A stretch of DNA of 55,112 bases, from positions 1-55,112 of the forward strand of contig CAZEGC010000001.1 in assembly GCA_964511635.1 (NCBI GenBank), read 5' to 3'. A model generated the notes under the pieces. It was given only the letters and a program-made list of their open reading frames with translations, searched no databases and was not told the origin of the DNA. The translations under genes were made by a program, and so were the position numbers. Shown in pieces: positions 10,792-44,477 of this stretch. The stretch's first letter is position 1. The number at the start of each line of letters is the position of its first letter. Source of the DNA: an uncultured Candidatus Saccharibacteria bacterium. Lineage in GTDB: Bacteria; Patescibacteriota; Saccharimonadia; Saccharimonadales; Saccharimonadaceae.

Positions 10792-11553
10792 CTACTGAGT
10801 GACTCCAAGAATACCTTCAATCACCAAAGCCGTATCCTCCCAGCCGTCAACTGCAATCGTATCTATTCCCATGGCTTTTACTGGATAGTCGTTGCCGCCC
10901 TCCTCTAGCTTGTCACCTATAAACAAAATATTTTCTTTACCGATTTCTAAGGCGTCCATGAGTTTTCGCATACCATAGGCCTTGTCGATTCCGATGCGAG
11001 TAATGTCCACACTAGTAGTCCCGCCTAAGCGAACTTCTAGGTTAGGCAGCTGCTGTGCAACCATATCGCGTAGCTTATGCTTGGCAGCGTCGTTTTTCTC
11101 TGCCCACTCGTATTTCTTTTCAGCAGGCGCTTGTTGACCCAGGGCGGAATAGGTCACTTGACTGCCCCGGTCTTCAATTATTTCGCCGTAAGGCTTATCT
11201 ACCCATATGCCCACTTCTTTGGCACTACTTTTTAGAGTGGATATGATTTTACTTTTCTCATCATTCGTTAAGTCTTCTGAGTATTGCAGCTTCCAATCTT
11301 TATTTAACTCGTCGTATCGATAATACCTAGTGCCGCAAGTCGGCATTAAGTGCATACGATTTAATTTATGGGCCGGAACCTCTAGTCGATCCACCACCTG
11401 CATCATAAATTGTTCGATTTTACCACCAGAAATGATACAGACATCATAGTGCTCTAGCAACTTAGCAAGTAGCTCCCCCATGCGATCTGACATGGGCGAT
11501 TTAGTAACTGATAATGTGTCGTCTAGGTCAAAAGCGATTACTTGTTTCGTCAT
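10792..11553 (-). CDS. HAD-IIB family hydrolase (sugar-phosphatase / phosphomannomutase-like fold)
   Basis: 253 aa with HAD motif I FDLDDTL and motif IV GDKLEEGGNDYP. Confidence 0.7.
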   Translation of the reverse strand: MTKQVIAFDLDDTLSVTKSPMSDRMGELLAKLLEHYDVCIISGGKIEQFMMQVVDRLEVPAHKLNRMHLMPTCGTRYYRYDELNKDWKLQYSEDLTNDEKSKIISTLKSSAKEVGIWVDKPYGEIIEDRGSQVTYSALGQQAPAEKKYEWAEKNDAAKHKLRDMVAQQLPNLEVRLGGTTSVDITRIGIDKAYGMRKLMDALEIGKENILFIGDKLEEGGNDYPVKAMGIDTIAVDGWEDTALVIEGILGVTQ

Positions 11554-21495: not shown

Positions 21496-22623
21496 CTACT
21501 CTTCGCTAGATTCCTCTAGGGCGCTTAGCAAGCTATCTTCTATATTCTTCCTCGGTTTTGGTGCCTCGGCACGCGGCTCTGGCTTGGTGGCAATGATATC
21601 AAGCTCGTAACCTGTCAATCGACTCGCTAAACGAACGTTCTGACCTCCGCGGCCAATTGCAATTGACTGCTGGTCCTCAGCTACATGAACTTTGGCTCGC
21701 TTGTCGCTTTCATCAATTTCAACTTTGTCTACTTCGGCCGGACTGAGGGCTGCTACTATAAATGAGCTAACATCTTCATCGTAGGTGACTATGTCAATTT
21801 TTTCTTGATCACCGATTTCGCTCATTACTGTTTGAACCCTGGTGCCGTGACCACCGACAAAAGTACCGACAGGGTCGACGCCAGGAACGGTGCTGCGAAC
21901 AGCCAGTTTAGTCCTTCGGCCAGCTTCCCGGGCAATAGCTTTTATCTCAACGGCCCCTGTTTCCATCTCGGGTACTTCTTGTTCAAATAGTGCCCTGACA
22001 AAATCTTCACTACCGCGACTTAAAATCAATTGAGGCCCGCGATTTTCGCGTTCAATATCCTTTATTAGCACCCTAGTCCGTGATCCGACGCTATAATACT
22101 CATTTGGAATCTGCTCGCTTTGAGGCATGATTCCAGTTGCCTTACCTAAGTCAATCCTTACCACCCGAGGCTCAACACGCTGGACGGTGCCATTTACAAG
22201 CATGCCAATTTTATCTTCGTACTCTTCTAGTACCACTTCCCGCTCGGCTTCGCGTAGACGCTGCAACACCACCTGCTTGGCAGTCTGGGCCGCTACGCGC
22301 CCAAATGAGGTTACCTTGTGCTCTTCCTCGATTATATCGCCTATTTGTACGTCAGGCTTAACCTTTTTAGCATCCTCTAGGCTAACTTCAACCGATTCGC
22401 TACCTACCTCCCTGACTACTTCACGGGCTACATAAACATCGACTTCACCCGATACGCTATTTAGCTTAGCTCGCACCTCCTGGTCGCGCTGCCCATGGTC
22501 CCGCCTCCAGGCAGCAGCTAGCGCCTGCTCTATAACACTTAAAACCGTTTCTTCGGGTAAGTTCTTTTCTTCAGCAATTGTTCTGACAGTTAGAGTCAGT
22601 TGTTTTACGTTAATATCTTCCAC
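21496..22623 (-). CDS. nusA: Transcription termination/antitermination factor NusA
   Basis: It has an N-terminal RNAP-binding domain (EEKNLPEETVLSVIEQALAAAWRR), an S1 domain and two KH domains (GRGGQNVRLASRLTG). I prefer the GTG start at 22623, which has AAGGGAG 10 nt upstream, over the tracked upstream GTG at 22677. Confidence 0.85.
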   Translation of the reverse strand: MEDINVKQLTLTVRTIAEEKNLPEETVLSVIEQALAAAWRRDHGQRDQEVRAKLNSVSGEVDVYVAREVVREVGSESVEVSLEDAKKVKPDVQIGDIIEEEHKVTSFGRVAAQTAKQVVLQRLREAEREVVLEEYEDKIGMLVNGTVQRVEPRVVRIDLGKATGIMPQSEQIPNEYYSVGSRTRVLIKDIERENRGPQLILSRGSEDFVRALFEQEVPEMETGAVEIKAIAREAGRRTKLAVRSTVPGVDPVGTFVGGHGTRVQTVMSEIGDQEKIDIVTYDEDVSSFIVAALSPAEVDKVEIDESDKRAKVHVAEDQQSIAIGRGGQNVRLASRLTGYELDIIATKPEPRAEAPKPRKNIEDSLLSALEESSEE

Positions 22624-22728
22624 TTGCAGTGATCTCCCTTGCTTCTTTATGAAAAAAGTCGACCTTCCGGCCGACACATCTACTAATACTAATAATACAC
22701 CAAACTGACACCTGTATGCAACAATAAT

Positions 22729-23448
22729 TTATTTACTGCTAGGCAGCCTCTGATCGGGGCAATTAGATAAAACTGTTTTCATTGCTTTCTTTTCAGCTTT
22801 TGTAACCCATAGATCATATTTGCTTTTAACCGCTATTTGTCTAGCAACATACGGACAACGATATTCTTTCCGGGGTGGAAGCCACGTAGCCGCATCTGAA
22901 TCACCCTTTTCTTGGTTTAGCGCGCCGCTAACCGCTAGCAAGTTCAGCGGATCATTATAAAACGCATTACGCTCGTCATAGCTAAGTTGCTGGGCCCCTT
23001 TTTGCCAGGCGTCGCTAACTGCAACCACGTGATCAATTTGAATCTCACTACTAGAATTTCGCCCGCGTCGAAACTCTAGACTCTCGCCCGAGTAGGGATC
23101 CTGCAATGTGCCAGATTCGACTTGACATTCATCGCCCACTACTGGACTGTGCAAGTCACGAAATAATATTACATTTCTAATGTTGCAACCCTGCAGCTGA
23201 CCCCAGCCTGGACTAAACATGCTTCTTGCATAGCCTGTTTTTGGTGCTCGACCTTTTGTACTTAATTGGTCCAAGGTAGCGCTTGCGTGCTTACCGTCTG
23301 CTAGAGTATCCAGACGGCTAGCACTAGAGGATTTGATTTCAGCTTGTTCACTTTGGTGCTCAATTGAACCTTGCACGCCAAAAATAGAAGTGATAATAAA
23401 AACTATTATCAAAACAGCTAGTCTTCGCCTGGACCCTGACTGATTCAT
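22729..23448 (-). CDS. Membrane-anchored/secreted DUF1524-type (His-Me finger, GmrSD C-terminal-like) nuclease
   Basis: 239 aa. It has an N-terminal TM/signal anchor, then GYARSMFSPGW...IDHVVAVSDAWQKGA...NLLAVSGALNQEKGDSDAATWLPP, the pattern I associate with extracellular DUF1524 nucleases. Confidence 0.6.
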   Translation of the reverse strand: MNQSGSRRRLAVLIIVFIITSIFGVQGSIEHQSEQAEIKSSSASRLDTLADGKHASATLDQLSTKGRAPKTGYARSMFSPGWGQLQGCNIRNVILFRDLHSPVVGDECQVESGTLQDPYSGESLEFRRGRNSSSEIQIDHVVAVSDAWQKGAQQLSYDERNAFYNDPLNLLAVSGALNQEKGDSDAATWLPPRKEYRCPYVARQIAVKSKYDLWVTKAEKKAMKTVLSNCPDQRLPSSK

Positions 23449-23465
23449 GCAAGTAATATATCCTT

Positions 23466-23474
23466 TGCTACAAT
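23466..23474 (+). promoter_or_regulatory. Extended -10 element TGCTACAAT, 6 nt upstream of the pepN ATG
   Basis: TGC TACAAT GGGTGT ATG (ATG at 23481), with no SD. Confidence 0.45.
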
Positions 23475-23480
23475 GGGTGT

Positions 23481-26009
23481 ATGAATACTGTATCTAGACT
23501 AATTAACAAATTCAACCCAACCCACTATGAACTCTCGCTTGATTTGGAGCGCGAAAAGCGTCAATTTTCAGGCGTGGTATCAATATACGGGGAACGTCCT
23601 AGCGGTGATGACTCGATCATTCTGCACTCAAAAGATCTAGCCATTGAATCGATCACGGTAGACGGTAAATTGGCAAACTTCCAAGCTGGTGAAAACGATG
23701 AACTGAGTATTAAGCCTAAGGAGCTAAACTCGACAAAGCATGCGATTGTGATTGCTTTTTCGGGCTCAATCACTGATTCAATGCACGGTCTGTATCCATG
23801 CTACTACGACCATAACGGCGAGAAAAAAGAACTACTGGCAACTCAGTTTGAAAGTCATCATGCACGCGAAGTCTTCCCCTGCGTTGACGAGCCAGAAGCA
23901 AAAGCAACCTTTGACGTAACCCTTTCAACTGAGGAAGACGTGACAGTACTTGGTAACATGCCGATTCAAACTCAGCACACCGAAAATAGCAAATTAGTTA
24001 CACGATTTGAAACCACGCCACGAATGAGCACCTACCTGCTCGCTTTCGTGGTGGGTCAGATGCATAAAAAATCTGCCACCACCAGTAACGGGGTCGAGGT
24101 AAATATCTGGGCCACACCGGCACAGACGCTTGAAAGTCTAGACTTTGCGCTTGATATCGCAACTAGGACGATCGAATTTTTTGATGAGTATTTTGGCGTG
24201 CCGTACCCGCTTCCAAAGAGTGACCATGTAGCGCTGCCGGACTTTTCAAGCGGTGCAATGGAAAACTGGGGTCTGATTACTTACCGCGAGATAGCACTGC
24301 TGGCTGATCCTAGTAACGCCTCTGTTTCTAGCAAGCACTATATAGCTACTGTTATTGCACATGAATTGTCCCACCAATGGTTCGGTAATTTAGTTACCAT
24401 GCGGTGGTGGAATAACTTGTGGCTTAATGAAAGCTTTGCTACTTTAATGGAGTATATAGCTGTGGACGCACTAGAGCCTAGTTGGAATATCTGGCTAGAT
24501 TTTGCTAGCCATGAAAGCATATTGGCTCTTCGCCGTGACAGTATCGAAGGTGTTCAGCCAGTTCAAGTTGACGTTAATCATCCCGATGAAATATCAACCT
24601 TGTTTGACGGGGCAATTGTATACGCCAAGGGCGCCAGGCTCCTGCGCATGCTTCAACACCATATCGGACATGAGGCATTTAAAACAGGGCTTCAGAAATA
24701 CTTTTCAACCCATGCCTATGGGAATACCGAAGAAAATGACCTATGGGACGCCCTAAGCGAAGCTAGTGGCAAAGACATCGCCAAGCTAATGAATCCTTGG
24801 ATTTCCAGGTCTGGCTATCCAGTAGTTAGCGTTCACTCCGAAAGTGACTCTCAAGCGACACTACGTCAAGAACAGTTCCTAATAAACCCTGACGCTAAGT
24901 CTGATAGGGTCTGGCCGATTCCACTTAACACAAGCCAGTCAGGTACTGATAGCGTCATGAATGACCAAAAGCTAACTATAAAAGTAAATCCTAAAAAAAG
25001 CCTAAGGCTAAATGTCGGCGATAGCGCCCACTTTATTACTCACTACGATGACGCCAGCCTAAGCAAAATAATTGCTACGGATACTAGTGAAGGTTTGCGT
25101 CCGCTCGATCGGCTCCAGCTTCTGCACGAACAAACTTTGCTCGCCCGCGGGGAAAGACTAGAAAGCTACAAGCTCCTAGGATTGCTAAATACATATAGGC
25201 ACGAAACCAGTGAGGCGGTCTGGGGGATCATCAGTATGGCAACTGGTGAATTAAAGAAATTCGTAGAGCTCGACAGCCAAGCTGAACTAAAACTGAGACA
25301 ATTTACGGCTGACCTGGCCCGCAAGCAATACGATCGACTTGGCTGGAAAATGACCGAGAGCGAAAGCGAAGAAGACACGAAACTAAGATCAACCATTACT
25401 AGCATGATGATCTATGGCCAAGACCCGGACGCTATTGCCGCAGCGCTTGATATTTATAAAAATGTAGCCGTTGTTGATATAGATTCAAATATTCGACCAA
25501 GCATACTAGGTGCGGCTATTCGTTACGGCGACGATGACTCAATCGCAGATAAACTAATTAAGCTTTATGCAAAGACCTCTTCTGCTGAACTTCGTAGCGA
25601 TATCATATCCGGCTTAACTAATACGCACGATGAGGACGTAGCTTCGCGGCTGCTTGACTCTATGCAAGACAAGGGTATCGTAAAGCCGCAGGATGCAGCC
25701 CACTGGTTCGTATATCTAATTCGAAATAGGTATTCGCGCCAACAAGCCTGGCAGTGGCTACAGGACAACTGGGGTTGGATAGAGGCCACCTACAGCGGAG
25801 ACAAAAGCTATGATGCCTTCCCTAGGTACGCTGCTAGCGCCCTAGCAACCAGACAGCAGCTAATAGAATATAGGGAGTTCTTTACTCCTCTGCAGTCTAA
25901 TCCATCACTCACCCGAGTCATTAAGATAGGTAAAAAAGAAATTGAAGCCAGAGTGAGGCTGATCGAAGGCCAGAAGGCAGCCGTAGAAAAAGCTTTGCTA
26001 AATCTCTAA
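23481..26009 (+). CDS. pepN: Aminopeptidase N (M1 family zinc metallopeptidase)
   Basis: 842 aa with the GAMENWG exopeptidase motif, HELSHQWFGN...WLNESFA zinc site and a C-terminal ERAP1-like domain. Confidence 0.9.
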   Translation: MNTVSRLINKFNPTHYELSLDLEREKRQFSGVVSIYGERPSGDDSIILHSKDLAIESITVDGKLANFQAGENDELSIKPKELNSTKHAIVIAFSGSITDSMHGLYPCYYDHNGEKKELLATQFESHHAREVFPCVDEPEAKATFDVTLSTEEDVTVLGNMPIQTQHTENSKLVTRFETTPRMSTYLLAFVVGQMHKKSATTSNGVEVNIWATPAQTLESLDFALDIATRTIEFFDEYFGVPYPLPKSDHVALPDFSSGAMENWGLITYREIALLADPSNASVSSKHYIATVIAHELSHQWFGNLVTMRWWNNLWLNESFATLMEYIAVDALEPSWNIWLDFASHESILALRRDSIEGVQPVQVDVNHPDEISTLFDGAIVYAKGARLLRMLQHHIGHEAFKTGLQKYFSTHAYGNTEENDLWDALSEASGKDIAKLMNPWISRSGYPVVSVHSESDSQATLRQEQFLINPDAKSDRVWPIPLNTSQSGTDSVMNDQKLTIKVNPKKSLRLNVGDSAHFITHYDDASLSKIIATDTSEGLRPLDRLQLLHEQTLLARGERLESYKLLGLLNTYRHETSEAVWGIISMATGELKKFVELDSQAELKLRQFTADLARKQYDRLGWKMTESESEEDTKLRSTITSMMIYGQDPDAIAAALDIYKNVAVVDIDSNIRPSILGAAIRYGDDDSIADKLIKLYAKTSSAELRSDIISGLTNTHDEDVASRLLDSMQDKGIVKPQDAAHWFVYLIRNRYSRQQAWQWLQDNWGWIEATYSGDKSYDAFPRYAASALATRQQLIEYREFFTPLQSNPSLTRVIKIGKKEIEARVRLIEGQKAAVEKALLNL

Positions 26010-26933
26010 ATAGTGCTCAATTTGCGGCGGAATACCGCTAACGGAAGCTACGGCTAGTCTCATATTGACTCCCTTTAGATTACTTGCAGCCTGAAAGACC
26101 CTAGCCGAAAATTCCATTTGCTTTAACTTTTTGGTGGTTATAGCGTCTAAGCCATCGCCGTGGCTAGACTGTCGGCGATACTTTACTTCTGTAAAAAATA
26201 CTGTATTTCTAAAGCGCGAAATGATATCAATTTCACAGTACTTTGTACGCCAGTTTTTATGAAGAACCGTATGGCCACTTGAGGTTAAATAATCACCCAC
26301 CAACTGTTCAGCAATGGCGCCTACTGGTGACGAGACACCAGACCTATCGTCCGATTCGCCACTAGATTCTGGTGCCGCCTTATCAGCGTAGGGCCTAAGA
26401 GGCGCAAATGAAAGCCTGTGAACTGGCGTAACCCCTAAGTGGCTTATCGCCTTGCGGTGCTTTGCCGTACCGTAACCTACATGACTGCTAAATTTATAGC
26501 CGCTAAAGACGGTGTCCAGTTGCGCCATATAACTGTCCCGCGCCACCTTTGCTACTATCGATGCCGCGCTAACACTTGGTATCAGTAGGTCAGCCTTCTT
26601 CATTAAAGTAACGTTGTCACCTTTTAGCAGCGGCACCGTGCCATCAATAATAATTTCACTATATGGACATGATATTTGACGAAGTGCCTGGTGAGCTGCA
26701 GTCATCAAAGCTCTGGATAAGCCGATTTTGTCAATCTGCCTAGCACTCACCCAGCCTAGCCCCACGCCACTGGCATTATTTCTGATGATTTTATCTAACT
26801 CTAGTCTACGGACTTTAGTTAATTTTTTACTATCAGTTAACCCATCAATAGCGTGTCCACCCAGGACAACCGCCCCCACCACCAGCGGCCCAGCCCAGGC
26901 ACCTCGACCGACTTCATCAATTCCCACAATCAT
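25998..26933 (-). CDS. rnhB: Fusion protein: RNase HII (N-terminal) plus YraN/UPF0102 PD-(D/E)xK-like endonuclease (C-terminal)
   Basis: 311 aa. Residues 1-190 are RNase HII (GIDEVGRGAWAGPLVVGAV, DSKKL, SVSAASIVAKV). A Ser/Gly/Asp linker follows, and the C-terminal ~110 aa match YraN (GAIAEQLVGDYL...CEIDIISRF...TVFFTEVKYR). Its 3' end overlaps the pepN 3' end by 12 nt in convergent orientation. Confidence 0.8.
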   Translation of the reverse strand: MIVGIDEVGRGAWAGPLVVGAVVLGGHAIDGLTDSKKLTKVRRLELDKIIRNNASGVGLGWVSARQIDKIGLSRALMTAAHQALRQISCPYSEIIIDGTVPLLKGDNVTLMKKADLLIPSVSAASIVAKVARDSYMAQLDTVFSGYKFSSHVGYGTAKHRKAISHLGVTPVHRLSFAPLRPYADKAAPESSGESDDRSGVSSPVGAIAEQLVGDYLTSSGHTVLHKNWRTKYCEIDIISRFRNTVFFTEVKYRRQSSHGDGLDAITTKKLKQMEFSARVFQAASNLKGVNMRLAVASVSGIPPQIEHYLEI

Positions 26934-26953
26934 TTCCCTATTATTATAAGTTA

Positions 26954-26981
26954 TTGACTAATTAATCTTTTGTGTTATCAT
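26954..26981 (+). promoter_or_regulatory. Strong sigma70 promoter TTGACT-16 nt-TGT TATCAT driving the 97-aa orphan ORF
   Basis: TTGACT at 26954-26959, 16-nt spacer, extended -10 TGTTATCAT at 26973-26981, GGAGGT SD at 27003-27008, ATG at 27013. Confidence 0.65.
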
Positions 26982-27012
26982 AACCACAGTCGCCAAATAC
27001 CTGGAGGTATGG

Positions 27013-27306
27013 ATGAACATAGGACGAGCAACTACGATCTTCCGCTCCAGCAACGAGACAGACTGCCAGATATTCAAATGTCTGGTCGACTACATGGGAA
27101 AGGACGCCATCACCCAAGTCATCGTGAACCGCGAAAACGGTATCATGATGTTCGCTGGTGCAGACTGCATCGCCACCTCGCCAAACCTCACCTGCGGCTA
27201 TGACGGAAAAAGCCCCAGCTACACGCTGGAAGTCCTGCGGTACGCCGGCTTCGATGTTGAGCCCGCTCAAGTTTTCGAAGAGGAGCATCTGGACCGATCA
27301 AAATGA
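27013..27306 (+). CDS. Orphan 97-aa protein with four cysteines (CX4C ... CX8C); no family recognised
   Basis: It has its own promoter, SD and terminator. Amino-acid composition is balanced (MNIGRATTIFRSSNETDCQIFKCLVDYMG...TCGYDGKSPSYTLEVLRYAGFDVEPAQVFEEEHLDRSK). Third codon positions are C/G-rich, unlike the neighbours. Other open frames on both strands here (antisense 26962-27288; same-strand 26970-27203 and 27158-27394) are explained by the elevated GC. Confidence 0.6.
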   Translation: MNIGRATTIFRSSNETDCQIFKCLVDYMGKDAITQVIVNRENGIMMFAGADCIATSPNLTCGYDGKSPSYTLEVLRYAGFDVEPAQVFEEEHLDRSK

Positions 27307-27324
27307 GGCGACCGTAAGGCAAGC

Positions 27325-27367
27325 GCTCCGGATCTCGCCCCCTACCCGGGGGCTAGAGGTCCGGAGC
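27325..27367 (+). other. Very stable GC-rich hairpin (18 bp with a 2-nt bulge and 5-nt loop) 3' of the orphan ORF, without a U-tract
   Basis: GCTCCGGATCTC-GCCCCC-TACCC-GGGGGC-TA-GAGGTCCGGAGC pairs as 8 + 4 + 6 bp, including one G-U pair. Confidence 0.7.
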
Positions 27368-27392
27368 CATTCAACTTTCAAGACATATCAGT

Positions 27393-27430
27393 AAAATACC
27401 CTGCTCTATCAAGTGCAGGGTATTTTACTT
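27393..27430. terminator. Bidirectional rho-independent terminator shared by the orphan ORF (+) and rplS (-)
   Basis: AAAATACCCTGC-TCTATCAAGT-GCAGGGTATTTT: A-run, 9-bp core stem and T-run, symmetric on both strands. Confidence 0.8.
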
Positions 27431-27504
27431 AAGTTAATCTCATGAACTAGTCAGATTTTACTTCTTTGATCCGCCAAGACTCAATCTGCTGGGACTTGTC
27501 CTCT

Positions 27505-27906
27505 TTAAAGCTCAGCTTCTTTGGGCGCTTTTGTAGTATTTACAGCTGTTCGATCAAAGCTAACAGACCTAAGGCGCGCACTTTTACCACTTCTTTCCCG
27601 CAGAAAGCTTAGATAGTTTCGACGCACCTTTGCGCGACGGACAATTTCTACCTTAGCTACAAGCGGACTATGAAGCATAAAGCTTTTTTCAACTCCAATG
27701 CCACTAGTTACCTTGCGAACTGTGATGCGTGAAGTGTGTGAATTTTTTCGATCAGTTCGAATCACTACGCCTTCAAATATCTGAATTCGCTCTTTGCTGC
27801 CTTCTGTAATGCGTTGATGAACACGGACGGTATCACCGCTTCTAACCTCGACCACGCTAGGCTTCTTTTGGGCCTCGTTCACCTTCTGAATTAGTGCAAA
27901 ACTCAT
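27505..27906 (-). CDS. rplS: 50S ribosomal protein L19
   Basis: 133 aa. GDTVRVHQRITEGSKERIQIFEGVVI and RRAKVRRNYLSFLR are typical of L19. It has a short basic C-terminal extension. Confidence 0.9.
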   Translation of the reverse strand: MSFALIQKVNEAQKKPSVVEVRSGDTVRVHQRITEGSKERIQIFEGVVIRTDRKNSHTSRITVRKVTSGIGVEKSFMLHSPLVAKVEIVRRAKVRRNYLSFLRERSGKSARLRSVSFDRTAVNTTKAPKEAEL

Positions 27907-28003
27907 AATTTCTCTCTTTAACTATTATTTATAAGCAATCAATTACTAAATATACCATAGTACTCATTTTTTTTAAAGAGGTGAATCGATTAGATTTTAA
28001 GGT

Positions 28004-28009
28004 TATACT
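28004..28009 (+). promoter_or_regulatory. -10 element TATACT, 8 nt upstream of the malic enzyme ATG
   Basis: TATACT AGGGATAG ATG (ATG at 28018). Confidence 0.35.
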
Positions 28010-28017
28010 AGGGATAG

Positions 28018-29157
28018 ATGGCAGACTTTAATCAACTAGCCCGTGATTTACACGAAAAATTCGGCGGCAAGATAACCACTTCGCTTCGTGACTCGTCAGA
28101 CATGACCCGAGACAAGCTAAGTGCCTACTATAGCCCAGGTGTAGCTGAAATTAGTCGCTTGATAGCAAGCAGTGAGGACAACCTGGCAAAATACACCTGG
28201 ACCAACAATCTTGTGGCTGTTATCTCGGATGGTTCGGCAGTGCTCGGCTTAGGTGATATTGGCCCAAAAGCCGCCTTGCCCGTCATGGAAGGAAAATCTT
28301 TTCTCTTTAAACACTTCGCTAATATCGATAGTGTACCGATTGTTCTAGATGTTCACTCGGCAGATGAAATAATTGCGACCATCAAGGCAATTGCCCCCAG
28401 CTTTGGCGCTATAAACCTAGAAGATATTGCTGCCCCAAAAGCCTTTGAAGTTGAAGAAAAGCTAAAATCTTCACTTAATATTCCGGTTTTTCATGACGAT
28501 CAACATGGCACCGCTGTAGTCACGCTAGCAGGGCTTATTAATGCTTGCAAGGTAACAGGCAAAGAGCTGTCTAAATGTAAAATCACCCTTATAGGAGCGG
28601 GTGCTGCAGGCGTGGCAATAGCGAAACTACTGCATCAATTCGCCGAGCCAGAAATTATTGCACTCGACAGCAAGGGCACCATTAGCAGCAAACGTAGCGA
28701 TTTAAATGATAGCAAGAAACGCCTGCTCGAAATTACCAATCAAAATGACATAGACGGCAACCTAAAAGACGCCCTAATGGGGTCTGATGTATTTATAGGA
28801 GTTAGCCAACCAGGCTTGTTGACGCCTGATTTAATCGCCCTGATGGAAAAAGACCCGATAGTCTTTGCGCTGGCCAACCCAACCCCTGAGATAATGCCCG
28901 AAGAGGCAAAGTCTGCAGGTGTGGCTGTTATCGCCACTGGGCGCAGTGACTACCCAAACCAAGTCAACAATGCAGTTGCGTTTCCTGGTATATTTAGAGG
29001 TGCACTTGATAATAAAGTCACCAAAATAACTGATGAGCATAAAATTGCCGCCGCAAAACAGATTGCAGGCCTGATTACAAGGCCAACGCCTGATAACATT
29101 ATTCCTAGCGTATTTGACGAGCGACTAGTGCCTAGTATCGCTAAGGTTATCAAGTAG
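28018..29157 (+). CDS. NAD(P)-dependent malic enzyme (short, ~380-aa form)
   Basis: 379 aa with [36 protein letters not shown], the Rossmann motif [10 protein letters not shown] and [14 protein letters not shown]. Confidence 0.85.
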
Positions 29158-29173
29158 AGCGAAGTTTTTTAAA

Positions 29174-30796
29174 CTACAAGACACGGTTGACTTCCTCTAG
29201 GGTAGTCTCGCCCCGGAGAGCTGCGAGCACCCCGGCTTGAAGCAGCGTAACCATCCCATCCCTGCGAGCCGAAGCTTCAATATCGCTAGTATGAATATCT
29301 GACACATCACCACGTAAATATTTTTGTATTCTTTCACTTACGACCATTTGCTCCATTATGACTAGGCGACCCTTGTAGCCAAATGGAGCCTCGTCATTAG
29401 GAGCTGGCCTCCATAGCTTAAAACTATCTAAATCTGGTTTTTCTACATGTGGAGGTAGGTCTTCTAGGACACCCTTCACCCACTCACGTGTCGCGTGATC
29501 AGGTTCGTATTCTTGCTTTGTTTCATGATGCAATCGTCGGACTAGTCGTTGAGCAATCAGCAGCCGAATTGCCGTACTAAAGATTGGGTTTACGCCGATT
29601 AAGTCAATCATGCGACTAAATGCAGCAGCAGTTGAGGTAGCGTGAAAAGATGATAGTACTAAATGACCGGTAATTGAAGCCTGTATTGCAGTTTTTGCAG
29701 TATCCTTGTCACGAATCTCACCTATCATAACAACGTCAGGGTCTAGCCTAAGTACAGCCCGCAGCCCATCAGCAAAGCTTTGCCCCCCTGTGGTGTCGAT
29801 TGGAATCTGCGAGACTCCTGTAATTCCGTATTCAATCGGGTCCTCTAGGGTGATGATTTTTTTATCTGTATCATTGAGTGCGTTCAGCATACTATAAAGA
29901 GTAGTAGATTTTCCAGATCCGGTTGGACCCACCATTAGCGCCATACCGCGTGGGTGCCTTATAATATCATCAATTTCTTTTCGCTCTCTTGCCCCTATCC
30001 CTAGTAGATCGAGTTGCAGTAGGGATTCGTCAAAATTAAACAAGCGCATCACCGCGTCTTGACCGTACATAGTAGGCACGGTTTCGATCCTTAAATTAAG
30101 TAAGTGCGTAGCATTTGAACGAGTAACCTCTTTTTGCATGTGGCCAGACTGCGGTGTGGTGGCAGCTGTCGAAATGCCAGTTCGAGAAGCTAGCGCACCC
30201 ATCAACACTCGGTAACGCTCCTTTTCGATCTCTGCCACTGGATGCAGCGCTCCATCGATGCGCATGCGTACACGAATTGACGTTCGCATGTTCTCGATAT
30301 GAATATCACTCGCGCCTAGCTTGTCGGCTTGGTCAATTAGATAATCCATAACCTGGTCTGTCCCTACAGAGTTTAGGGTGCGGCTGACCTCGGCTATTGT
30401 ATTACTGTCACCTTTTTTAGCAATTTTGATATCATCATATTTTATTTCACGCGGCGGATCGTAGCGATTCATAAAAGCCTTAAACCCACTACCACTAATG
30501 AGCAAAAACTCTACATTATCACCCTGGTCATTATACTTTTGACGCAAATCCCTCATAAGCGACTGAGGGGTTTGGCTGGTAACGCCGAACCTATAAGGGT
30601 CGGCATCGCCACCCTGAAGAAGCGGCACAATCCTACCCTTATACATTTCGCTAATTTCTAAAATACCCTCAACTAACGGTAATTCGGCCTCAAACTCTCT
30701 GGAATCAACGTACTGCAAACCCAATATAGCCGCACGTTGCCGGGTGGCGCTTTCATCTTGTTCGCGGCGACGAGCTTGTATTTTTTGTTCGTCCAT
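29174..30796 (-). CDS. pilB: Type IV pilus / type II secretion assembly ATPase (PilB/GspE family)
   Basis: 540 aa. It has an N-terminal T2SSE_N-like region, Walker A GPTGSGKST, Asp box, Walker B and His box (GHLVLSSFH). Confidence 0.8.
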   Translation of the reverse strand: MDEQKIQARRREQDESATRQRAAILGLQYVDSREFEAELPLVEGILEISEMYKGRIVPLLQGGDADPYRFGVTSQTPQSLMRDLRQKYNDQGDNVEFLLISGSGFKAFMNRYDPPREIKYDDIKIAKKGDSNTIAEVSRTLNSVGTDQVMDYLIDQADKLGASDIHIENMRTSIRVRMRIDGALHPVAEIEKERYRVLMGALASRTGISTAATTPQSGHMQKEVTRSNATHLLNLRIETVPTMYGQDAVMRLFNFDESLLQLDLLGIGARERKEIDDIIRHPRGMALMVGPTGSGKSTTLYSMLNALNDTDKKIITLEDPIEYGITGVSQIPIDTTGGQSFADGLRAVLRLDPDVVMIGEIRDKDTAKTAIQASITGHLVLSSFHATSTAAAFSRMIDLIGVNPIFSTAIRLLIAQRLVRRLHHETKQEYEPDHATREWVKGVLEDLPPHVEKPDLDSFKLWRPAPNDEAPFGYKGRLVIMEQMVVSERIQKYLRGDVSDIHTSDIEASARRDGMVTLLQAGVLAALRGETTLEEVNRVL

Positions 30797-30805
30797 TACC
30801 TTATG

Positions 30806-30814
30806 ACTATAGCA
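30806..30814 (-). promoter_or_regulatory. Extended -10 element TGCTATAGT, 9 nt upstream of the pilB ATG
   Basis: The minus strand reads TGC TATAGT CATAAGGTA ATG. Confidence 0.4.
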
Positions 30815-30835
30815 AAAAGCATAACAATTTTATAG

Positions 30836-30844
30836 TGATACAAT
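30836..30844 (+). promoter_or_regulatory. Extended -10 element TGATACAAT, 7 nt upstream of the GTG start of the second SpoU-family gene
   Basis: TGA TACAAT GTGAAAT GTG (GTG at 30852). Confidence 0.45.
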
Positions 30845-30851
30845 GTGAAAT

Positions 30852-31361
30852 GTGTCTAAAGTTATAGTAATCGCAAACAACATTCGATCGACCTACAACA
30901 TTGGGTCTATCTTCCGCACCTCCGATGGCATGGGGGTAAAGCAGCTTATCCTCACCGGCTACACGCCGTACCCAGCAATTGAAAATGACAAACGCTTGCC
31001 ACATTTAGTCGCAAAGCTTACTCGACAAATTCAAAAATCGTCACTCGGCGCCGAGCAGCACCTACCATTTGCCCATCATGACTCAGCAGCTGACGTAATT
31101 GATAACTTAAAGAAAAAAGGCTACCGCATCGTGGCACTAGAGCAGCATGCCAGCAGCACCCAGCTAAACGAATATACGCCGCCGGGCAAGATTGCACTGC
31201 TACTAGGCGAAGAGGTGAGTGGTATTAACCCTGCTCTCCTTGATATGTGTGATGATATTATTGAAATTCCCATGGTCGGCAGCAAAGAATCATTCAACGT
31301 CAGCGTAGCGTGTGGGATAGCGCTTTACGCCCTAACTAATTGCTCGGCTACGGACGCATAA
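30852..31361 (+). CDS. SpoU/TrmH-family RNA methyltransferase (second copy, short form)
   Basis: 169 aa with a GTG start and the SPOUT motifs YNIGSIFRTSDGMGV, LLLGEEVSGI and IPMVGSKESFNVSVACGIALYAL. Confidence 0.75.
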   Translation: MSKVIVIANNIRSTYNIGSIFRTSDGMGVKQLILTGYTPYPAIENDKRLPHLVAKLTRQIQKSSLGAEQHLPFAHHDSAADVIDNLKKKGYRIVALEQHASSTQLNEYTPPGKIALLLGEEVSGINPALLDMCDDIIEIPMVGSKESFNVSVACGIALYALTNCSATDA

Positions 31362-31371
31362 GGCGCGCTGC

Positions 31372-34300
31372 CTACTTTAACACTACGCAGTCTTCACCTA
31401 GCTGCTTAACTAGTTCGCCTATCAGCTTATCACTCGCATCAATTTTAAACGGCATTTTAATTGCAGACTTCTTATCGATGCCGAGCACCAAAATAATATC
31501 AGTATTTCCGACATGCTCCGAGCAGCTGCGCTTCAAGTTCGTCAAAGCAGCTTTATCGTCAGGATTTTTAATATGAACAAATAGTTTTTTGGCTTCGGGC
31601 ACATCAATGATTGGCTTGAGATTTTCGGTTTTTTTATCACTACTTTTTGCTGGCTTAGTTGAGGTTGCCTGGCCAGCTCGACTGACTACTTGCTTTGGCT
31701 TCATACGCTCGGCAATCACCTTTTTGCTAGCACGGGGTGCCTCCATTTTGTGGCCCGTTGATTCATAGCTCCGAAGCTCATCGTCGGTCACTAGCATAAC
31801 TTCGTCGGCTATCATCTTTGCTTCACTAGTTAAAGTACCGTCTTTTTCGCGAGCGCTGACCTTACCAGACACCCTAACGACTGCATCCTGAGCTAGCTTT
31901 GCGCCCACTTGTTCGTATAGGTTCGGAAATACAATGACCTCCCCCTCTCCAGCCTTATCCTCAAGGCCTACAAAAGCCATTTTTGAACCAGTTTTGGTGA
32001 CAATGGTCCTAACGGTTGATATTAAGCCTCCTATTGTGGCCTTTTTGCCATCGATATCAGGTGAAAGCCTCGAGAGAGGCATGGTCTGCTCCTGGAAATA
32101 TGCATCATAATTATCCAGCGGATGGGCACTTATATATAGACCCAGCAGCTCGCGCTCCCAGGTCAGGCGTTCTTTTTCAGTGTGCTTAGCGGGCGCAGCC
32201 TGAAGATCAATCGTCGGCTGAATATCACTGGAACCTGCCAGGCCACCGAACAAATCAGCTTGCCCGCTCAAAGCTTCTTTTTGAAGCTTACTAGCAAATG
32301 CCAGCAGTTTGTCTAGGTTATACAAAAGATCGGACCTGTCAGCTAGTCGATCAAAAGCGCCTGACTTTATCAATGACTCCCAGACGCGCCTATTAACCTT
32401 TGAAGTCGACACTCGTTTGGCAAAATCCTCCACTGACTTAAATTTTTCCTCTGCCCGAGCACTTAAAATTTCCTCGACTGCGCCAACCCCAACACCCTTT
32501 ATGGCCGCCAATCCAAATCTGATTTCATCCTTCCCTGGCACTACAGCAAACTCGACAAAACTCTCATTAACGTCTGGAGCTAGCACAGTAAGGCCCATGT
32601 GCTTACATTCAGAGATTTCGATTGCCAGCCTATCGATATCATCCTGGTCGCTAGTCATCAGGGCTGCCATAAATGCATCAGGATAGTGTGCCTTTAGGTA
32701 GGCTGTCCAGTACGCGATTAACCCATAGCAGGCCGCATGAGACTTATTGAAGCAGTAGTTAGCAAACTCTTCTAGTTGGTTCCAAAAAGTCTCGGCAAGG
32801 CGCGGGTCTACACCACTATGGTCTCTGGCGCCCTGGATAAATTCTGGCTTAACCTTCTGCATAAGTTCAATGTTTTTCTTTCCAACCGCTTTCCTGAGAG
32901 TGTCAGCCTGACCGCCACTAAAGCCGCACATGTCTTTTGAAATCTGCATAAACTGCTCTTGGTAAACTAAGATTCCATACGTACTCTCAAGAGCACTTTC
33001 CATTTTGCTATGCAAAAATTCAATTTTTTCTTGGCCATGCTTCCGGCGAATAAAGCTATCTATAAACTGCATCGGCCCCGGGCGATACAAAGCCACCATC
33101 GCAATGATATCCTCAAACACTGTAGGCTTTAGTTCGCGCAAATAGCGCTTCATGCCAGCAGACTCTAGCTGAAAGACTCCCGTAGTATCGCCCCGCTGAA
33201 AAAGTTCATAAGTTTTTTCATCATCAAGTGATAATTCAGACAGAACTATTTCTTTTTTATAAACCTTTTTTATTATACGCATGGCGTTATTAATAATTGT
33301 CAGGTTAGATAAGCCCAAAAAGTCCATCTTAAGCAACCCAAGGTCTTCAACTGGGCCCATCGGGTATTGAGTTGAAACCACGCCTTTTTGAGCCATCTCA
33401 AGGGGAGTATACTTAACGATATCGTCCGGTGCAATTACCACGCCCGCTGCATGGACACCGTGAGAGCGAATCGTCCCCTCTAGCCTGATTGCGTAATCTA
33501 GCACCTCTTTTGATGTTGGGTTGGTTTCATACTCGCGCTTTAAATCCTGATCTTCTTTGATGCTAACTTTTAGAGGTATGTGTCGCCCCTGAATTGGCGG
33601 TGGAATCATTTTTGATAATCTATCAGCTTCAGAGTATGGCACCTCTAACACACGAGCCACGTCGCGAACTGCCGCACGGGCTGCCATTTTGCCAAAAGTA
33701 ACAATATTTGCCACCTTTGAATCACCATACTTTTTGGCACAATACTCTATTACTTCATTACGCCTAGTGTCCTGTATATCGATATCGATGTCAGGCATGG
33801 ATATGCGGTCTGGATTTAAGAACCTCTCAAATAGCAAATCATATTTTAATGGGTCAAGATCAGTGATATTCAGGGCATAGGCAATAATTGATCCAGCCGC
33901 ACTACCACGACCTGGACCAAATACAATCCCTCTAGACTTGCCCCAGTTCATGAAATCCTGAACTATCAAGAAATAGCCGTTATACCCCATTCTATCCAGC
34001 ACCTCGAGCTCCATCTCTACTCGCGACTTCACTTCATCTGAAAGCACTGCTTTTATTTCTGATACCTCCATGCTGTCCGTATCAACGGGAGCCATATCGT
34101 TATATCTAATGGCAAGTCCACGATAAACTAGTTTGTCAAGATAGGATTTCTCACTTTCGCCTTCAGGCACCGGGAATGTAGGAATTAATATCTTCCCCAA
34201 ATCAAGTTCGACATTACACCTATCTGCTATCAAACTTGCGTTTATAACTGCCTGTGGGTTGGTCTTGCTCCAGCGCTCAATTATTTCATCTGGGTCAGTC

Positions 34301-35100
34301 ACGTGTAGCTCGAACTCCTTTAAGCTCATGCGCTTTTCGTCGCTCAAAAACGAACCAGTCCCCACGCATAGCAGAATTTCATGCGCTTCCTGGTCTTCGT
34401 GGTCCAAGTAGTGACCATCGCTCGTGACAACAGCCTGAATATCTAGCTCACTCGATAGACGCTCTAGGTGTTGATTGATTCCAACCTGAACATCCCACTT
34501 AGCTGGGCAGTCGGGGTGTCCGTGATCCTGAAGTTCTAAATAATACCTATCGCCGAAAACTGACTTATACCAACTAGCTATACGCTTCGCCTCGTCGTAA
34601 TTATCTACTCTGAGCTGTTCACCAAGTTCGCCACTAGCACAGCCGGAGAGTATAATTAAGCCTTCGTTATACTCCTCTAGGAGTTCGCGGTCAATCCTGG
34701 GCTTATAATACATACCCTCAAGGTTCGCCTTAGAAGATAGCATCATTAGGTTTTGGTACCCAACGTTATTCATCGCCAGAATAATTAAATGATACCTGGC
34801 CTTGTCTTTTTGTGGATCACGGTCAAAGCGCGACCTTGCAGCTACGTAGGCTTCCATGCCAATAATTGGCTTTATGCCAGACTTTTTTGCTGACATATAA
34901 AATTCAACCGCTCCGGACATTGTGCCGTGGTCGGTAATTGCTACTGACTCCATACCCAGGTCTTTGACACGCTCGACAAGCTCGTCGACCTTAGTCAAAC
35001 CATCTAGCAAACTATGATGCGTATGGTTGTGTAGGTGTACGTAATCTTTAGATGTTAGCTGCTTGGTACTGACTGCAGACTCGACTGTTTTTACCCCCAT
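31372..35100 (-). CDS. dnaE: DNA polymerase III alpha subunit DnaE
   Basis: 1242 aa. It has an N-terminal PHP domain (HLHNHTHHSLLDG), polymerase core (PDIDIDI), HhH and OB fold, plus a roughly 130-aa Lys/Ser-rich C-terminal extension with a small terminal domain. Confidence 0.9.
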   Translation of the reverse strand: MGVKTVESAVSTKQLTSKDYVHLHNHTHHSLLDGLTKVDELVERVKDLGMESVAITDHGTMSGAVEFYMSAKKSGIKPIIGMEAYVAARSRFDRDPQKDKARYHLIILAMNNVGYQNLMMLSSKANLEGMYYKPRIDRELLEEYNEGLIILSGCASGELGEQLRVDNYDEAKRIASWYKSVFGDRYYLELQDHGHPDCPAKWDVQVGINQHLERLSSELDIQAVVTSDGHYLDHEDQEAHEILLCVGTGSFLSDEKRMSLKEFELHVTDPDEIIERWSKTNPQAVINASLIADRCNVELDLGKILIPTFPVPEGESEKSYLDKLVYRGLAIRYNDMAPVDTDSMEVSEIKAVLSDEVKSRVEMELEVLDRMGYNGYFLIVQDFMNWGKSRGIVFGPGRGSAAGSIIAYALNITDLDPLKYDLLFERFLNPDRISMPDIDIDIQDTRRNEVIEYCAKKYGDSKVANIVTFGKMAARAAVRDVARVLEVPYSEADRLSKMIPPPIQGRHIPLKVSIKEDQDLKREYETNPTSKEVLDYAIRLEGTIRSHGVHAAGVVIAPDDIVKYTPLEMAQKGVVSTQYPMGPVEDLGLLKMDFLGLSNLTIINNAMRIIKKVYKKEIVLSELSLDDEKTYELFQRGDTTGVFQLESAGMKRYLRELKPTVFEDIIAMVALYRPGPMQFIDSFIRRKHGQEKIEFLHSKMESALESTYGILVYQEQFMQISKDMCGFSGGQADTLRKAVGKKNIELMQKVKPEFIQGARDHSGVDPRLAETFWNQLEEFANYCFNKSHAACYGLIAYWTAYLKAHYPDAFMAALMTSDQDDIDRLAIEISECKHMGLTVLAPDVNESFVEFAVVPGKDEIRFGLAAIKGVGVGAVEEILSARAEEKFKSVEDFAKRVSTSKVNRRVWESLIKSGAFDRLADRSDLLYNLDKLLAFASKLQKEALSGQADLFGGLAGSSDIQPTIDLQAAPAKHTEKERLTWERELLGLYISAHPLDNYDAYFQEQTMPLSRLSPDIDGKKATIGGLISTVRTIVTKTGSKMAFVGLEDKAGEGEVIVFPNLYEQVGAKLAQDAVVRVSGKVSAREKDGTLTSEAKMIADEVMLVTDDELRSYESTGHKMEAPRASKKVIAERMKPKQVVSRAGQATSTKPAKSSDKKTENLKPIIDVPEAKKLFVHIKNPDDKAALTNLKRSCSEHVGNTDIILVLGIDKKSAIKMPFKIDASDKLIGELVKQLGEDCVVLK

Positions 35101-42506: not shown

Positions 42507-44477
42507 TTACATTTTTTGCTTAATTTCGGCAATTAAATCACGTAGTTCGGCAGCTTTTTCAAACTCCAAATTAGCGCTGGCTAGCTCCATCTGGGCTGTT
42601 AAATCTTTTATGAGTGTTTTGTATTCGTCTTTTGGTATTTTCTTTAGATCGATTTTTGGCTTGCCATCGTCCTTCATCGGGATAATTGCCCGAAGACCCT
42701 CGTCTATTTCCTTGGCGACACTACGTGGAGTGATGCCGTGCTTTTGATTGTGCGAAACCTGAATAGACCGCCTACGGTTAGTTTCATCGATTGCAGCCTG
42801 CATTGAACGCGTCACTTTATCGGCGTACATAATCACCTGGCCTTCTTCGTGCCTGGCGGCCCGACCAATTGTCTGGATTAATGAACTTTCAGACCGAAGA
42901 AAACCTTCCTTGTCGGCATCAATAATTGCCACCAAGCTGACTTCAGGCAGGTCCAGACCCTCACGTAGCAAATTTATACCGACCAAAACATCATAAACAC
43001 CCATCCGTAAATCACGCAAAACGTCACTGCGCTCTAGTGTGTCAATTTCGCTATGAAGATAAGCAGTTTTAATATCAATTTCTTGCAAATGCGCACTTAA
43101 ATCTTCGGCCATTCGCTTGGTAAGTGTCGTGACAAGCACCCGTTGATTCTTGCTAGTGCGATCTCGTATTTCAGCGATCAGATCATCTATCTGTTCGTCG
43201 GTTGGTCGTACGTGAATCTCAGGATCAAGCAATCCAGTCGGTCGTATGACCTGCTGCACTGGCTCGGGACTACGTTCAAGTTCATAATCACCAGGTGTAG
43301 CCGAGACATAAATAATTTTATTAATATGAGAGTTAAATTCGTCAAAAGTTAGCGGACGATTATCGAGTGCGCTGGGCAGGCGAAATCCATGCTCCACTAA
43401 AACTTCTTTTCGGGCCCTGTCGCCGTTATACATACCCCGAACCTGCGGCAAGGTCATGTGACTCTCATCAACCATCATCAAAAAGTCATCAGGGAAATAA
43501 TCGAGCAGGGTCGCAGGTTGCTGGCCAGGCTCCCGGTTAGTTAGATATCGGCTATAGTTTTCAATGCCTTTTACAAAACCAGTCTCTTCTAGCATTTCTA
43601 TATCAAATTTGGTGCGCTGAGCTAGTCGCTGCGCTTCGAGCAGTTTATTGTGTCGCTCGAACCACTCCAGCCTTTCTTTGAATTCGCGCTTGATGTTTTC
43701 AATCGCTCGCTCAAGCTTTTGCTTCGGAGTCACGTAGTGGCTGCTAGGAAATATCTTTATCTCGGTAGGTTCTTTTAGTATTTCACCCGTTAGTGGGTCG
43801 ATTTGCGTAATCCGGTCAACTTCATCCCCAAAAAACTCTAACCTATACGCCACGTCGCTCCCGGCCGGAAAGACATCCACTACGTCCCCTCGAACCCTAA
43901 ACGTTCCACGATGAAAATCTACATCGTTACGTTGATACTGGATATCTGTCAGCCAGCGTATAAACTTTGCCTGCTGACGGCGTTCACCTCTTTTGATCGT
44001 AATTGACATTTCACCGTAGTCATCGGGTGATCCAATGCCGTATATACAGCTAACACTAGCTACAATTATAACGTCACGTCGAGTCAGCAAACTTGAGGTC
44101 GCAGCGTGTCTAAGTCGATCGATTTCTTCGTTAATTTTAGAATCTTTTTCAATATAGGTATCACTGCTGGCAATATAGGCTTCCGGTTGGTAATAGTCAA
44201 AATAGCTAACGAAATAGTGAACCTCGTTATCAGGAAAAAAAGTCTTGAATTCAGAAAATAGCTGAGCTGCTAGTGTTTTGTTATGAGCAAGCACCAGGGT
44301 TGGTACTTGCTGACTTTGAATGACGTTTGCCATTGTGAACGTTTTGCCACTACCCGTAACTCCCAGTAGTGTTTGTTCACGTTCGCCGCCTTTTAATCCG
44401 CCTATCAACTGCGAAATAGCCGACGGCTGATCGCCCGTCGGCTGATAATTCGTCTTTAATTTAAAGGATTTATTCAT
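42507..44477 (-). CDS. uvrB: Excinuclease ABC subunit B
   Basis: 656 aa with Walker A GVTGSGKT, a beta-hairpin region, helicase motifs and a C-terminal UVR domain ([11 protein letters not shown]). Confidence 0.95.

Follow-up and report, generated by a model that had tools for sequence, protein, structure and literature searches.

A Candidate Accessory-Gene Slot between rplS and rnhB in Saccharibacteria

Introduction

Three kinds of packaging come to mind when a small, self-contained gene turns up between two housekeeping genes. Phage “morons” (Hendrix, Juhala and colleagues) are reportedly independent promoter–gene–terminator units that lie between conserved phage genes. Chromosomal hotspots, known from bacterial pangenomes and defense islands, hold accessory genes flanked by core genes. 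An integron cassette joins a small open reading frame (ORF) to a folded attC site of 57–141 nt that has paired R''/R' core sites (RYYYAAC/GTTRRRY) and extrahelical bases. Saccharibacteria have tiny genomes with few recognizable accessory regions, and in one of them, an uncultured Candidatus Saccharibacteria bacterium (GenBank assembly GCA_964511635.1, contig CAZEGC010000001.1), we have tried to understand a single short stretch of DNA: the 571 bp that separate rnhB from rplS and that carry, among other things, an ORF of 97 codons that we call ORF97. What is this interval, and how did it come to be there? Throughout, the window is the entire 55,112-bp contig, the slot is the rplS–rnhB gap, and the cassette is the unit inside the slot.

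We argue that the interval is probably an accessory gene cassette in a variable chromosomal slot, lying between the rplS terminator and the rnhB promoter, that can be filled by alternative and unrelated cassettes, singly or in tandem. The closest known concept is the phage moron, here moved into a hotspot of a bacterial core genome. Below, we describe the anatomy of the interval, its insertion relative to related genomes, the coding signature of its gene, the family to which that gene belongs, and the polymorphism of the cassettes, and we weigh three other ways in which one might account for it.

Results

A Small Unit Parts rplS from rnhB

In about 24 relatives, rnhB begins 1–190 bp after rplS, and in the loci that we number L001, L002, L004, and L010, the gap is filled by a terminator and a −10 box 6–10 nt upstream of the rnhB start. 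Because the pair is so tight in relatives, the unit in the window is an insertion between the two genes. The initial annotation had seen here a self-contained unit (promoter-like site, Shine–Dalgarno sequence, 97-residue ORF, 18-pair hairpin, and bidirectional terminator) oriented against its neighbors and splitting rplS from rnhB, and each of these parts was located (Table 1). The transcription unit points toward rplS, opposite in orientation to both flanking genes, and its promoter-like site stands back to back with the promoter of rnhB; promoter-like sites of this kind number 4 vs. 2.1 (standard deviation 1.9) expected from shuffles, which is no significant enrichment.

Table 1. Features of the rplS–rnhB interval in the window, and ORFs in the slots of relatives
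Locus	Feature	Position	Strand	Length	Remarks
Window	rnhB, fused to YraN/UPF0102 domain	25998-26933	-	311 aa	Left flank; Pfam RNase_HII E=1.7e-34, UPF0102 E=4.4e-18
Window	TATAAT box	26943-26948	-		9 nt upstream of rnhB ATG; belongs to native flank
Window	Sigma-70-like promoter site, TTGACT-16-TATCAT with TG extension	26954-26981	+		Pattern match, 10/12 positions
Window	Shine–Dalgarno sequence, GGAGG	27003-27007	+		5 nt before ATG at 27013
Window	ORF97	27013-27306	+	97 aa	Soluble, acidic, pI (isoelectric point) 4.7; “TCG” motif family
Window	Long GC-rich hairpin	27325-27368	+	18 pairs	From folding; 3' of ORF97; no U-tract
Window	Bidirectional intrinsic terminator	27390-27430	both		Symmetric A-tract/stem/T-tract
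Window	rplS (ribosomal protein L19)	27505-27906	-		Right flank, conserved core gene; Pfam Ribosomal_L19 E=1.4e-36
L017	Slot ORF			107 aa
L019	Slot ORF			about 125 aa
L099 (identical to L098 and L100)	Slot ORF			112 aa
L016	Slot ORF			99 aa
L102	Slot ORFs, in tandem			103 aa and 99 aa
L103	Slot ORF			107 aa
L101	Slot ORF			81 aa
L105 (identical to L106)	Slot ORF			95 aa

Nor is the window alone in having such a unit. The gap widens to 443–1003 bp in L016, L017, L019, L099, L101, L102, L103, and L105; in this clade, the gene order is malic-enzyme gene (maeB), rplS, slot, rnhB, pepN, with small ORFs in the slot that run opposite to the flanks. ORF97 had first been described as a foreign-looking orphan; with different small genes at the same position in related genomes, it is not a lone one. 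All cassettes examined are laid out alike: a strong Shine–Dalgarno sequence precedes the ORF, a long hairpin comes after it, and the bidirectional rplS terminator closes the series. The Shine–Dalgarno sequence is a full GGAGG in most of the relatives' cassettes (it is AAGGAG in L019, GGAAGG in L016, and GGGGGAG before the 103-residue ORF of L102). Two cassettes stand in tandem at L102:998-2000, each with its own promoter-like site, Shine–Dalgarno sequence, and terminator, and genomes related to L102 retain just one of its two cassette types (L016 or L103).

More distant lineages use the same gap for other things: a same-strand membrane protein of 165 residues in L021, L022, L024, L025, and L026, small membrane ORFs in L027 and L046, and a NUDIX hydrolase in L036. 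At L010:3811-3997, an ORF in the gap (MKVFFVYILAIKCNGTLYIGMTQ*) resembles the N-terminal fragment of a GIY-YIG nuclease, which may be a further sign of the gap receiving insertions.

At the edges of the cassette in the window, flanking direct repeats do not go beyond chance (the longest is 7 nt, P = 0.58), inverted or terminal repeats do not exceed chance either, and there are no target-site duplications; with repeats at the chance level, transposon-like boundaries were rejected. The element has no second copy elsewhere in the window.

Unrelated Families in One Slot

By sequence comparison, the slot ORFs of this clade fall into at least three unrelated orphan families. Family 1, which we call the TCG-motif family, consists of ORF97, the 107-residue protein of L017, the 112-residue protein of L099, and the protein of L019; its members have in common a hydrophobic β-strand pattern, a motif resembling [FS]P[EN][LY]TCG in which Cys-Gly is invariant, and then a helix that ends in GF. 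Family 2, which is helical, comprises the L016 protein, both L102 proteins, and the L103 protein (107 residues), and it is unrelated to family 1 by hhalign. Family 3 consists of the membrane proteins of L101 and L105. No slot protein of any family found a match in Pfam, PHROGs, the PDB, or viral contigs.

How good is the case that ORF97 belongs to family 1? With ORF97 as the query, BLASTP gave E=6e-4 for the L099 protein and E=0.002-0.008 for the L017 protein, with the weakest pairwise E at 0.09. A leave-one-out hidden Markov model built from the other three members scored ORF97 at 14.8 bits, a score that none of 2000 shuffles reached (maximum 7.5). Since the comparisons were chosen a priori by slot position, not from a database trawl, we accept ORF97 as a distant homologue of its three positional counterparts (L017, L019, and L099) on sequence similarity that is weak but significant. 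We read ORF97 as a soluble, acidic, and fast-evolving member of a previously undescribed family.

The four cysteines of ORF97 had been taken as a possible metal site. The CX4C and CX8C spacings are indeed present; the metal site is not borne out, as only one of the cysteines, C61, is conserved among the four members. In the alignment, C61, G62, and T71 are invariant, and C18, C23, and C52 are not conserved.

Searches of every kind that we tried leave the protein without a known family, just as it had first been described. ORF97 had no match in Pfam (E up to 10), NCBIfam, or PADLOC, nor in one sequence search and two profile searches of the PDB; a word-indexed search of 5.8 billion clusters returned only ORF97 itself; no ORF97 relatives were found in phages and plasmids (tblastn and blastn) or in viral and metagenome contigs (pattern scans); and the literature yielded no relevant description of such a slot in Saccharibacteria. 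The sole match in PHROGs, phrog_19231 (E=0.045), was taken as chance, and other family members do not match it. Exhaustive phmmer against 1.84 billion representatives gave two giant repeat adhesins, P0002 and P0003, at E=3e-7 and 5e-4. We rejected this Firmicutes-type adhesin repeat: the two scores are sums over 6 and 4 stretches, that is, chance amplified by repetition; a profile of the repeat (37 copies) scores ORF97 at only 6.9 bits; and the best single BLASTP segment, at 32.7 bits, is not significant database-wide. A HicB/UPF0150-type antitoxin, a resemblance that we had presumed from a likeness to “P-x-L-x-C-G,” was tested and rejected too, as hhalign of the family-1 alignment against Escherichia coli HicB gave a probability of 0.1%, and there is neither a Pfam match nor an adjacent small toxin gene.

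Conserved Flanks, Changing Contents

Between loci, the flanks (rplS, its terminator, and rnhB) are 70–86% identical in DNA, and similarity stops at or near the slot edges; the comparison of the interval across relatives, proposed when the unit was first annotated, puts its boundaries at the rplS terminator and the rnhB start. Inside the slot, the only DNA match is between L016 and L102. The flanks of L016 and L103 are 84–86% identical and their slot proteins 24% identical; L017 and L099, which both carry family 1, have RnhB proteins that are 74% identical and slot proteins that are about 19–25% identical. Genomes with a cassette group together in a neighbor-joining tree of RnhB, where families 2 and 3 are both monophyletic. 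Family 1 is paraphyletic in this tree, and the window branches deepest of all carriers.

As for the flanking genes themselves, rnhB is a conserved core gene, with 7555 relatives of its product at E<=1e-40 among the scored candidates. The nearest of these are about 57–63% identical to the RnhB of the window, and all come from Saccharibacteria or from metagenome-assembled genomes of Saccharimonadales. Both domains, RNase HII and YraN/UPF0102 (a NERD-like nuclease domain), are present in all 120 best RnhB relatives listed; the two are encoded by separate overlapping genes in L005, and L010 has a split version.

A Hairpin for Every Cassette

The hairpin downstream of ORF97 is the most stable 50-nt fold of the whole contig at −37.3 kcal/mol, in a distribution whose mean is −7.7 (standard deviation 3.8) and whose second-best member is −26.1 kcal/mol. 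The initial annotation had made of it an adjacent structured RNA element. It behaves instead as a terminator stem of the cassette, one per cassette and different in sequence each time. That is, a long GC-rich hairpin lies 0–20 nt 3' of the stop codon in the relatives' cassettes examined, with stems of about 10–19 pairs (composite in L016), and these hairpins are unrelated in sequence to one another. The L102 cassette that does not adjoin rplS ends in an ordinary hairpin-plus-T-tract terminator, from which it would seem that each long hairpin simply serves its own cassette as a terminator or 3' stabilizer. The hairpin of the window is probably the cassette's own 3' stem-loop, serving as a terminator, as a stabilizer of the mRNA 3' end, or as both.

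No Rfam family came near its gathering threshold, and such matches as there were look like terminators. Type I toxin–antitoxin and small-RNA loci were rejected on these scores: ohsC reached 21.4 of the required 50 bits and OrzO-P 20 of 60, with E above 2, and both matches fall on the terminator hairpin. That terminator (27390-27430) is most likely the native terminator of rplS, shared with the convergent cassette: an intrinsic terminator follows rplS directly in the four cassette-free relatives named above, and DNA homology between loci ends at or just past it (as in L016 vs. L102).

Borrowed from a Richer Genome?

The composition of the unit does set it apart, although less than had been estimated. 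The figure of 55–65% GC overstated the unit, in which ORF97 has 53.4%, the hairpin region 61.4%, and the whole interval 48.9%; the core from 26985 to 27389 measures 55.1%, the window 46.1%, and the adjacent rplS, which had been put at about 48%, measures 44.8%. The preference for C or G at third codon positions, also noted at the outset, was confirmed and proved to be of a peculiar kind. The GC content at third positions (GC3) is 0.68 in ORF97 vs. 0.43 (standard deviation 0.04) in 45 other ORFs, and other genes do not reach it, their 1307 windows of 97 codons having a maximum of 0.64. The excess is one of C over T only: C/(C+T) is 0.81 vs. 0.41 (standard deviation 0.06), and G/(G+A) is normal at 0.49.

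One might imagine, as the initial annotation did, that a gene and its terminator were acquired recently, and once, from a donor of higher GC content, such as an actinobacterial host or a phage. In favor of such an import, one can cite not only a GC3 that is an outlier among all of the contig's genes but also a leader and Shine–Dalgarno architecture that is out of the ordinary in this genome (among 44 ORFs of the window, only 3 have a full GGAGG in front), a GC-rich stem lacking U residues, which is what terminators of high-GC bacteria generally look like, and the search of 5.8 billion clusters that returned ORF97 alone. We nevertheless consider it unlikely. Three other Saccharibacteria genomes have distant homologues of ORF97 in this slot, alike in orientation and layout, and the genome of ORF97 is the deepest among the carriers; phages, plasmids, and viral and metagenome contigs offered no similarity; a C-over-T excess with normal G/(G+A) is unlike the trace that a uniformly GC-rich donor would leave; target-site duplications and terminal repeats are missing; and none of the genes called within about 5 kb encodes an integrase or transposase.

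Moreover, GC3 is elevated in most of the relatives' cassettes as well. In the five loci in which slot gene, rplS, and rnhB were all measured, GC3 is higher in the slot gene than in the two flanks by 0.15–0.4, and it is above that of same-strand neighbors in most loci. A single recent import would hardly account for a bias that persists in this way; it could instead come from a common pool of cassettes, from biased gene conversion at a site prone to recombination, or from selection acting on small genes with high expression.

Is ORF97 a Gene?

A second possibility is that ORF97 is spurious, the GC-rich segment being noncoding DNA or a structured RNA, or else that the true gene is ORF108, a minus-strand ORF of 108 codons that overlaps ORF97 and is codirectional with rplS and rnhB. 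Length offers no comfort here, as 7.6% of segment shuffles give an ORF of at least 97 codons, and several frames are open on both strands of the interval, as had been noticed from the beginning. Standard searches gave no homologues, the structure model is of low confidence, and the region folds far better than its shuffles (z=−8.1). The two hairpins 3' of ORF97 account for the folding signal, and, as described above, no Rfam family claims the region. The codons point the other way as well. At codon positions 1 and 2, base frequencies of ORF97 match those of native genes almost exactly, position 3 alone deviating; three-base periodicity is significant (p=5e-4); GGAGG is rightly spaced for ORF97 only; and the similarity to positional counterparts is at the protein level, not at the DNA level. 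This combination supports ORF97 as a real gene, and we hold the spurious ORF to be very unlikely. ORF108, with an abnormal codon position 1 (G 0.48, A 0.13), no Shine–Dalgarno sequence, and no homologues, was rejected.

The Assembly, and What Weighs against Our Proposal

Two independent Logan contigs of SRR10083315 match 21998-27017 and 27151-30906, each with a single mismatch; the rplS-side contig runs unbroken from rplS through the terminator and hairpin to the 3' half of ORF97, and the rnhB-side contig includes the promoter, the Shine–Dalgarno sequence, and the first five bases of ORF97. A chimera, in which a GC-rich piece was wrongly joined into the rplS–rnhB spacer, might be suspected from the fact that these contigs stop at 27017 and restart at 27151, with 133 bp in the deposited assembly only, and from the recording of ORF97 from NCBI alone (neighboring RnhB is recorded from Logan also), but it is extremely unlikely given that both contigs continue into the unit from the flanks, that one frame spans the break with GC3 of 0.72 and 0.65 on its two sides, and that independently assembled relatives have the same architecture. 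The break could be due to low coverage, to variation among strains, or to a metagenomic repeat; the variable region of a diversity-generating retroelement was rejected as its cause, there being no template-like repeat in the window.

Several observations count against the slot as we have presented it, and it is best to have them together. The 5' half of ORF97 (27018-27150) is absent from both Logan contigs, and the join there rests on the deposited assembly and on the continuity of frame and GC3. The homology within family 1 is weak, with 17–23% identity over the alignment and about 29–38% in short local BLASTP matches, among four sequences; exhaustive phmmer failed to recover the slot proteins of L017, L019, and L099; and a single-sequence AlphaFold2 model of ORF97 was uninformative, with a predicted local distance difference test (pLDDT) score of 41. 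The RnhB tree is a simple neighbor-joining tree without support values. Finally, GC3 of the L019 cassette is not above that of its same-strand neighbors, so the elevation is not universal.

The Surroundings of the Slot

The neighborhood consists of nusA, a gene with a GmrSD_C domain, pepN, rnhB, rplS, the malic enzyme gene, pilB, and a SpoU methylase gene. The GmrSD_C protein (239 residues, 22729-23448 on the minus strand), whose domain is a nuclease domain of type IV restriction-like character, is encoded about 3.5 kb away from the slot, with nusA on one side and pepN on the other, and its gene may be a defense gene.

The TATAAT box before rnhB is likely the gene's own promoter, with a leader that is short or absent, and relatives have the same kind of box 6–10 nt upstream of the rnhB start. 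Many other genes in the window also have a −10-like box of the form TANNNT only 6–10 nt before the start codon and no Shine–Dalgarno sequence; examples are the ORFs at 234-1520, 3524-4156, 10792-11553, 23481-26009, 25998-26933, 28018-29157, 31372-35100, 40540-30, and 42507-44477. This suggests that leaderless or very short-leader mRNAs are widespread in this Saccharibacterium.

There is also a strand effect in composition, with third-position C/(C+T) of 0.47–0.57 in plus-strand genes vs. about 0.40 on the minus strand. The higher plus-strand value is consistent with a steadily negative GC skew and with the location of most genes on one strand, probably the leading one; the cassette is among the few genes in the window that have the opposite orientation.

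Discussion

How might such a slot have come to be, and how might it work? On the simplest reading, family 1 would have been in the slot for a long time, evolving very rapidly or giving way to divergent alleles; now and then, unrelated cassettes would later have displaced the occupant, and cassettes would have been duplicated or lost. The conserved flanks would allow one cassette to replace another by homologous recombination. In the window, the cassette would be expressed from its own sigma-70-like promoter, if the pattern match is a guide, and its transcript would be stopped, or its 3' end protected, by the cassette's own stem, with the rplS terminator as a backstop.

Which of the known packages does the slot most resemble? 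Like a moron, the cassette is a self-contained unit with a terminator and a putative promoter of its own, unlike its neighbors in composition and set between two genes that stand side by side in relatives; it differs or is missing from one related genome to another, and it codes for a small protein. Unlike a moron, it sits in a bacterial core-genome context (rplS and rnhB) and not in a phage or prophage, with no phage genes nearby and no phage similarity. With chromosomal hotspots, the slot has in common its conserved flanks, its alternative and unrelated contents, the sharp end of DNA homology, and the accumulation in tandem seen in L102. It differs from them in being very small, with one or two genes of about 100 codons in 0.4–1 kb, in the uniform layout of its cassettes, and in the lack at the slot of recognizable defense, mobile-element, or integrase genes (PADLOC finds nothing).

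The integron is the third comparison. Here too, small and mostly orphan ORFs are each followed by an imperfect palindrome, cassettes alternate or stand in tandem at one site, and composition is unlike that of the host. Yet the hairpins of the slot are 40–46 nt long (44 nt in the window), shorter than attC, and nearly perfectly paired; there is no paired R''/R', a lone ATTCAAC 3' of the hairpin in the window being without a partner; and the cassettes appear to carry promoter-like sequences of their own, most clearly in the window and in both L102 cassettes. No motif is common to the hairpin-adjacent sequence of seven loci, and no integrase is found among called genes within about 5 kb on either side of the slot. 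Because there is neither an attC-type site nor an integrase nearby, we conclude that the cassette is not an integron cassette.

One might nonetheless go a step further and imagine a dedicated cassette-exchange locus, in which small, highly expressed cassettes, each with a long hairpin of unrelated sequence at its end, are swapped or stacked through some mechanism that recognizes structure and not sequence (a trans-acting recombinase, for example, acting on folded single-stranded DNA that enters by natural transformation) and which holds the diversifying small conflict proteins of episymbionts, be they for immunity, exclusion, or anti-defense. We offer this as a long shot, and it is more likely wrong than even the recent import from a high-GC donor. 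If true, it would be an integron-like system without a linked integrase in the reduced genome of a member of the candidate phyla radiation (CPR).

What the proteins do is a matter for tentative guesses. The role in anti-defense or host interaction suggested in the initial annotation is speculative. Proteins that are small, strongly signalled, variable among strains, and either soluble or membrane-bound, all at one locus, make up a pattern seen for genes of immunity, exclusion, and anti-defense, and our best guess is that ORF97 varies between strains as a factor in conflict or fitness, for instance as an immunity-type or anti-defense-type protein. We regard this as doubtful, if somewhat less so than the import of ORF97 from a high-GC donor.

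The locus is also a caution. What looks in a single genome like an “orphan with foreign codon usage” can turn out to be a long-standing resident that evolves fast, and it is positional comparison alone that reveals it as such. There is a practical side as well: some Saccharibacteria are naturally transformable and genetically tractable, and the conserved flanks suggest that the slot is a neutral, well-insulated site for gene insertion. For Saccharibacteria themselves, the slot yields at least three undescribed families of small proteins, and a place where unrelated small genes replace one another is a probable site of strain-level adaptation.

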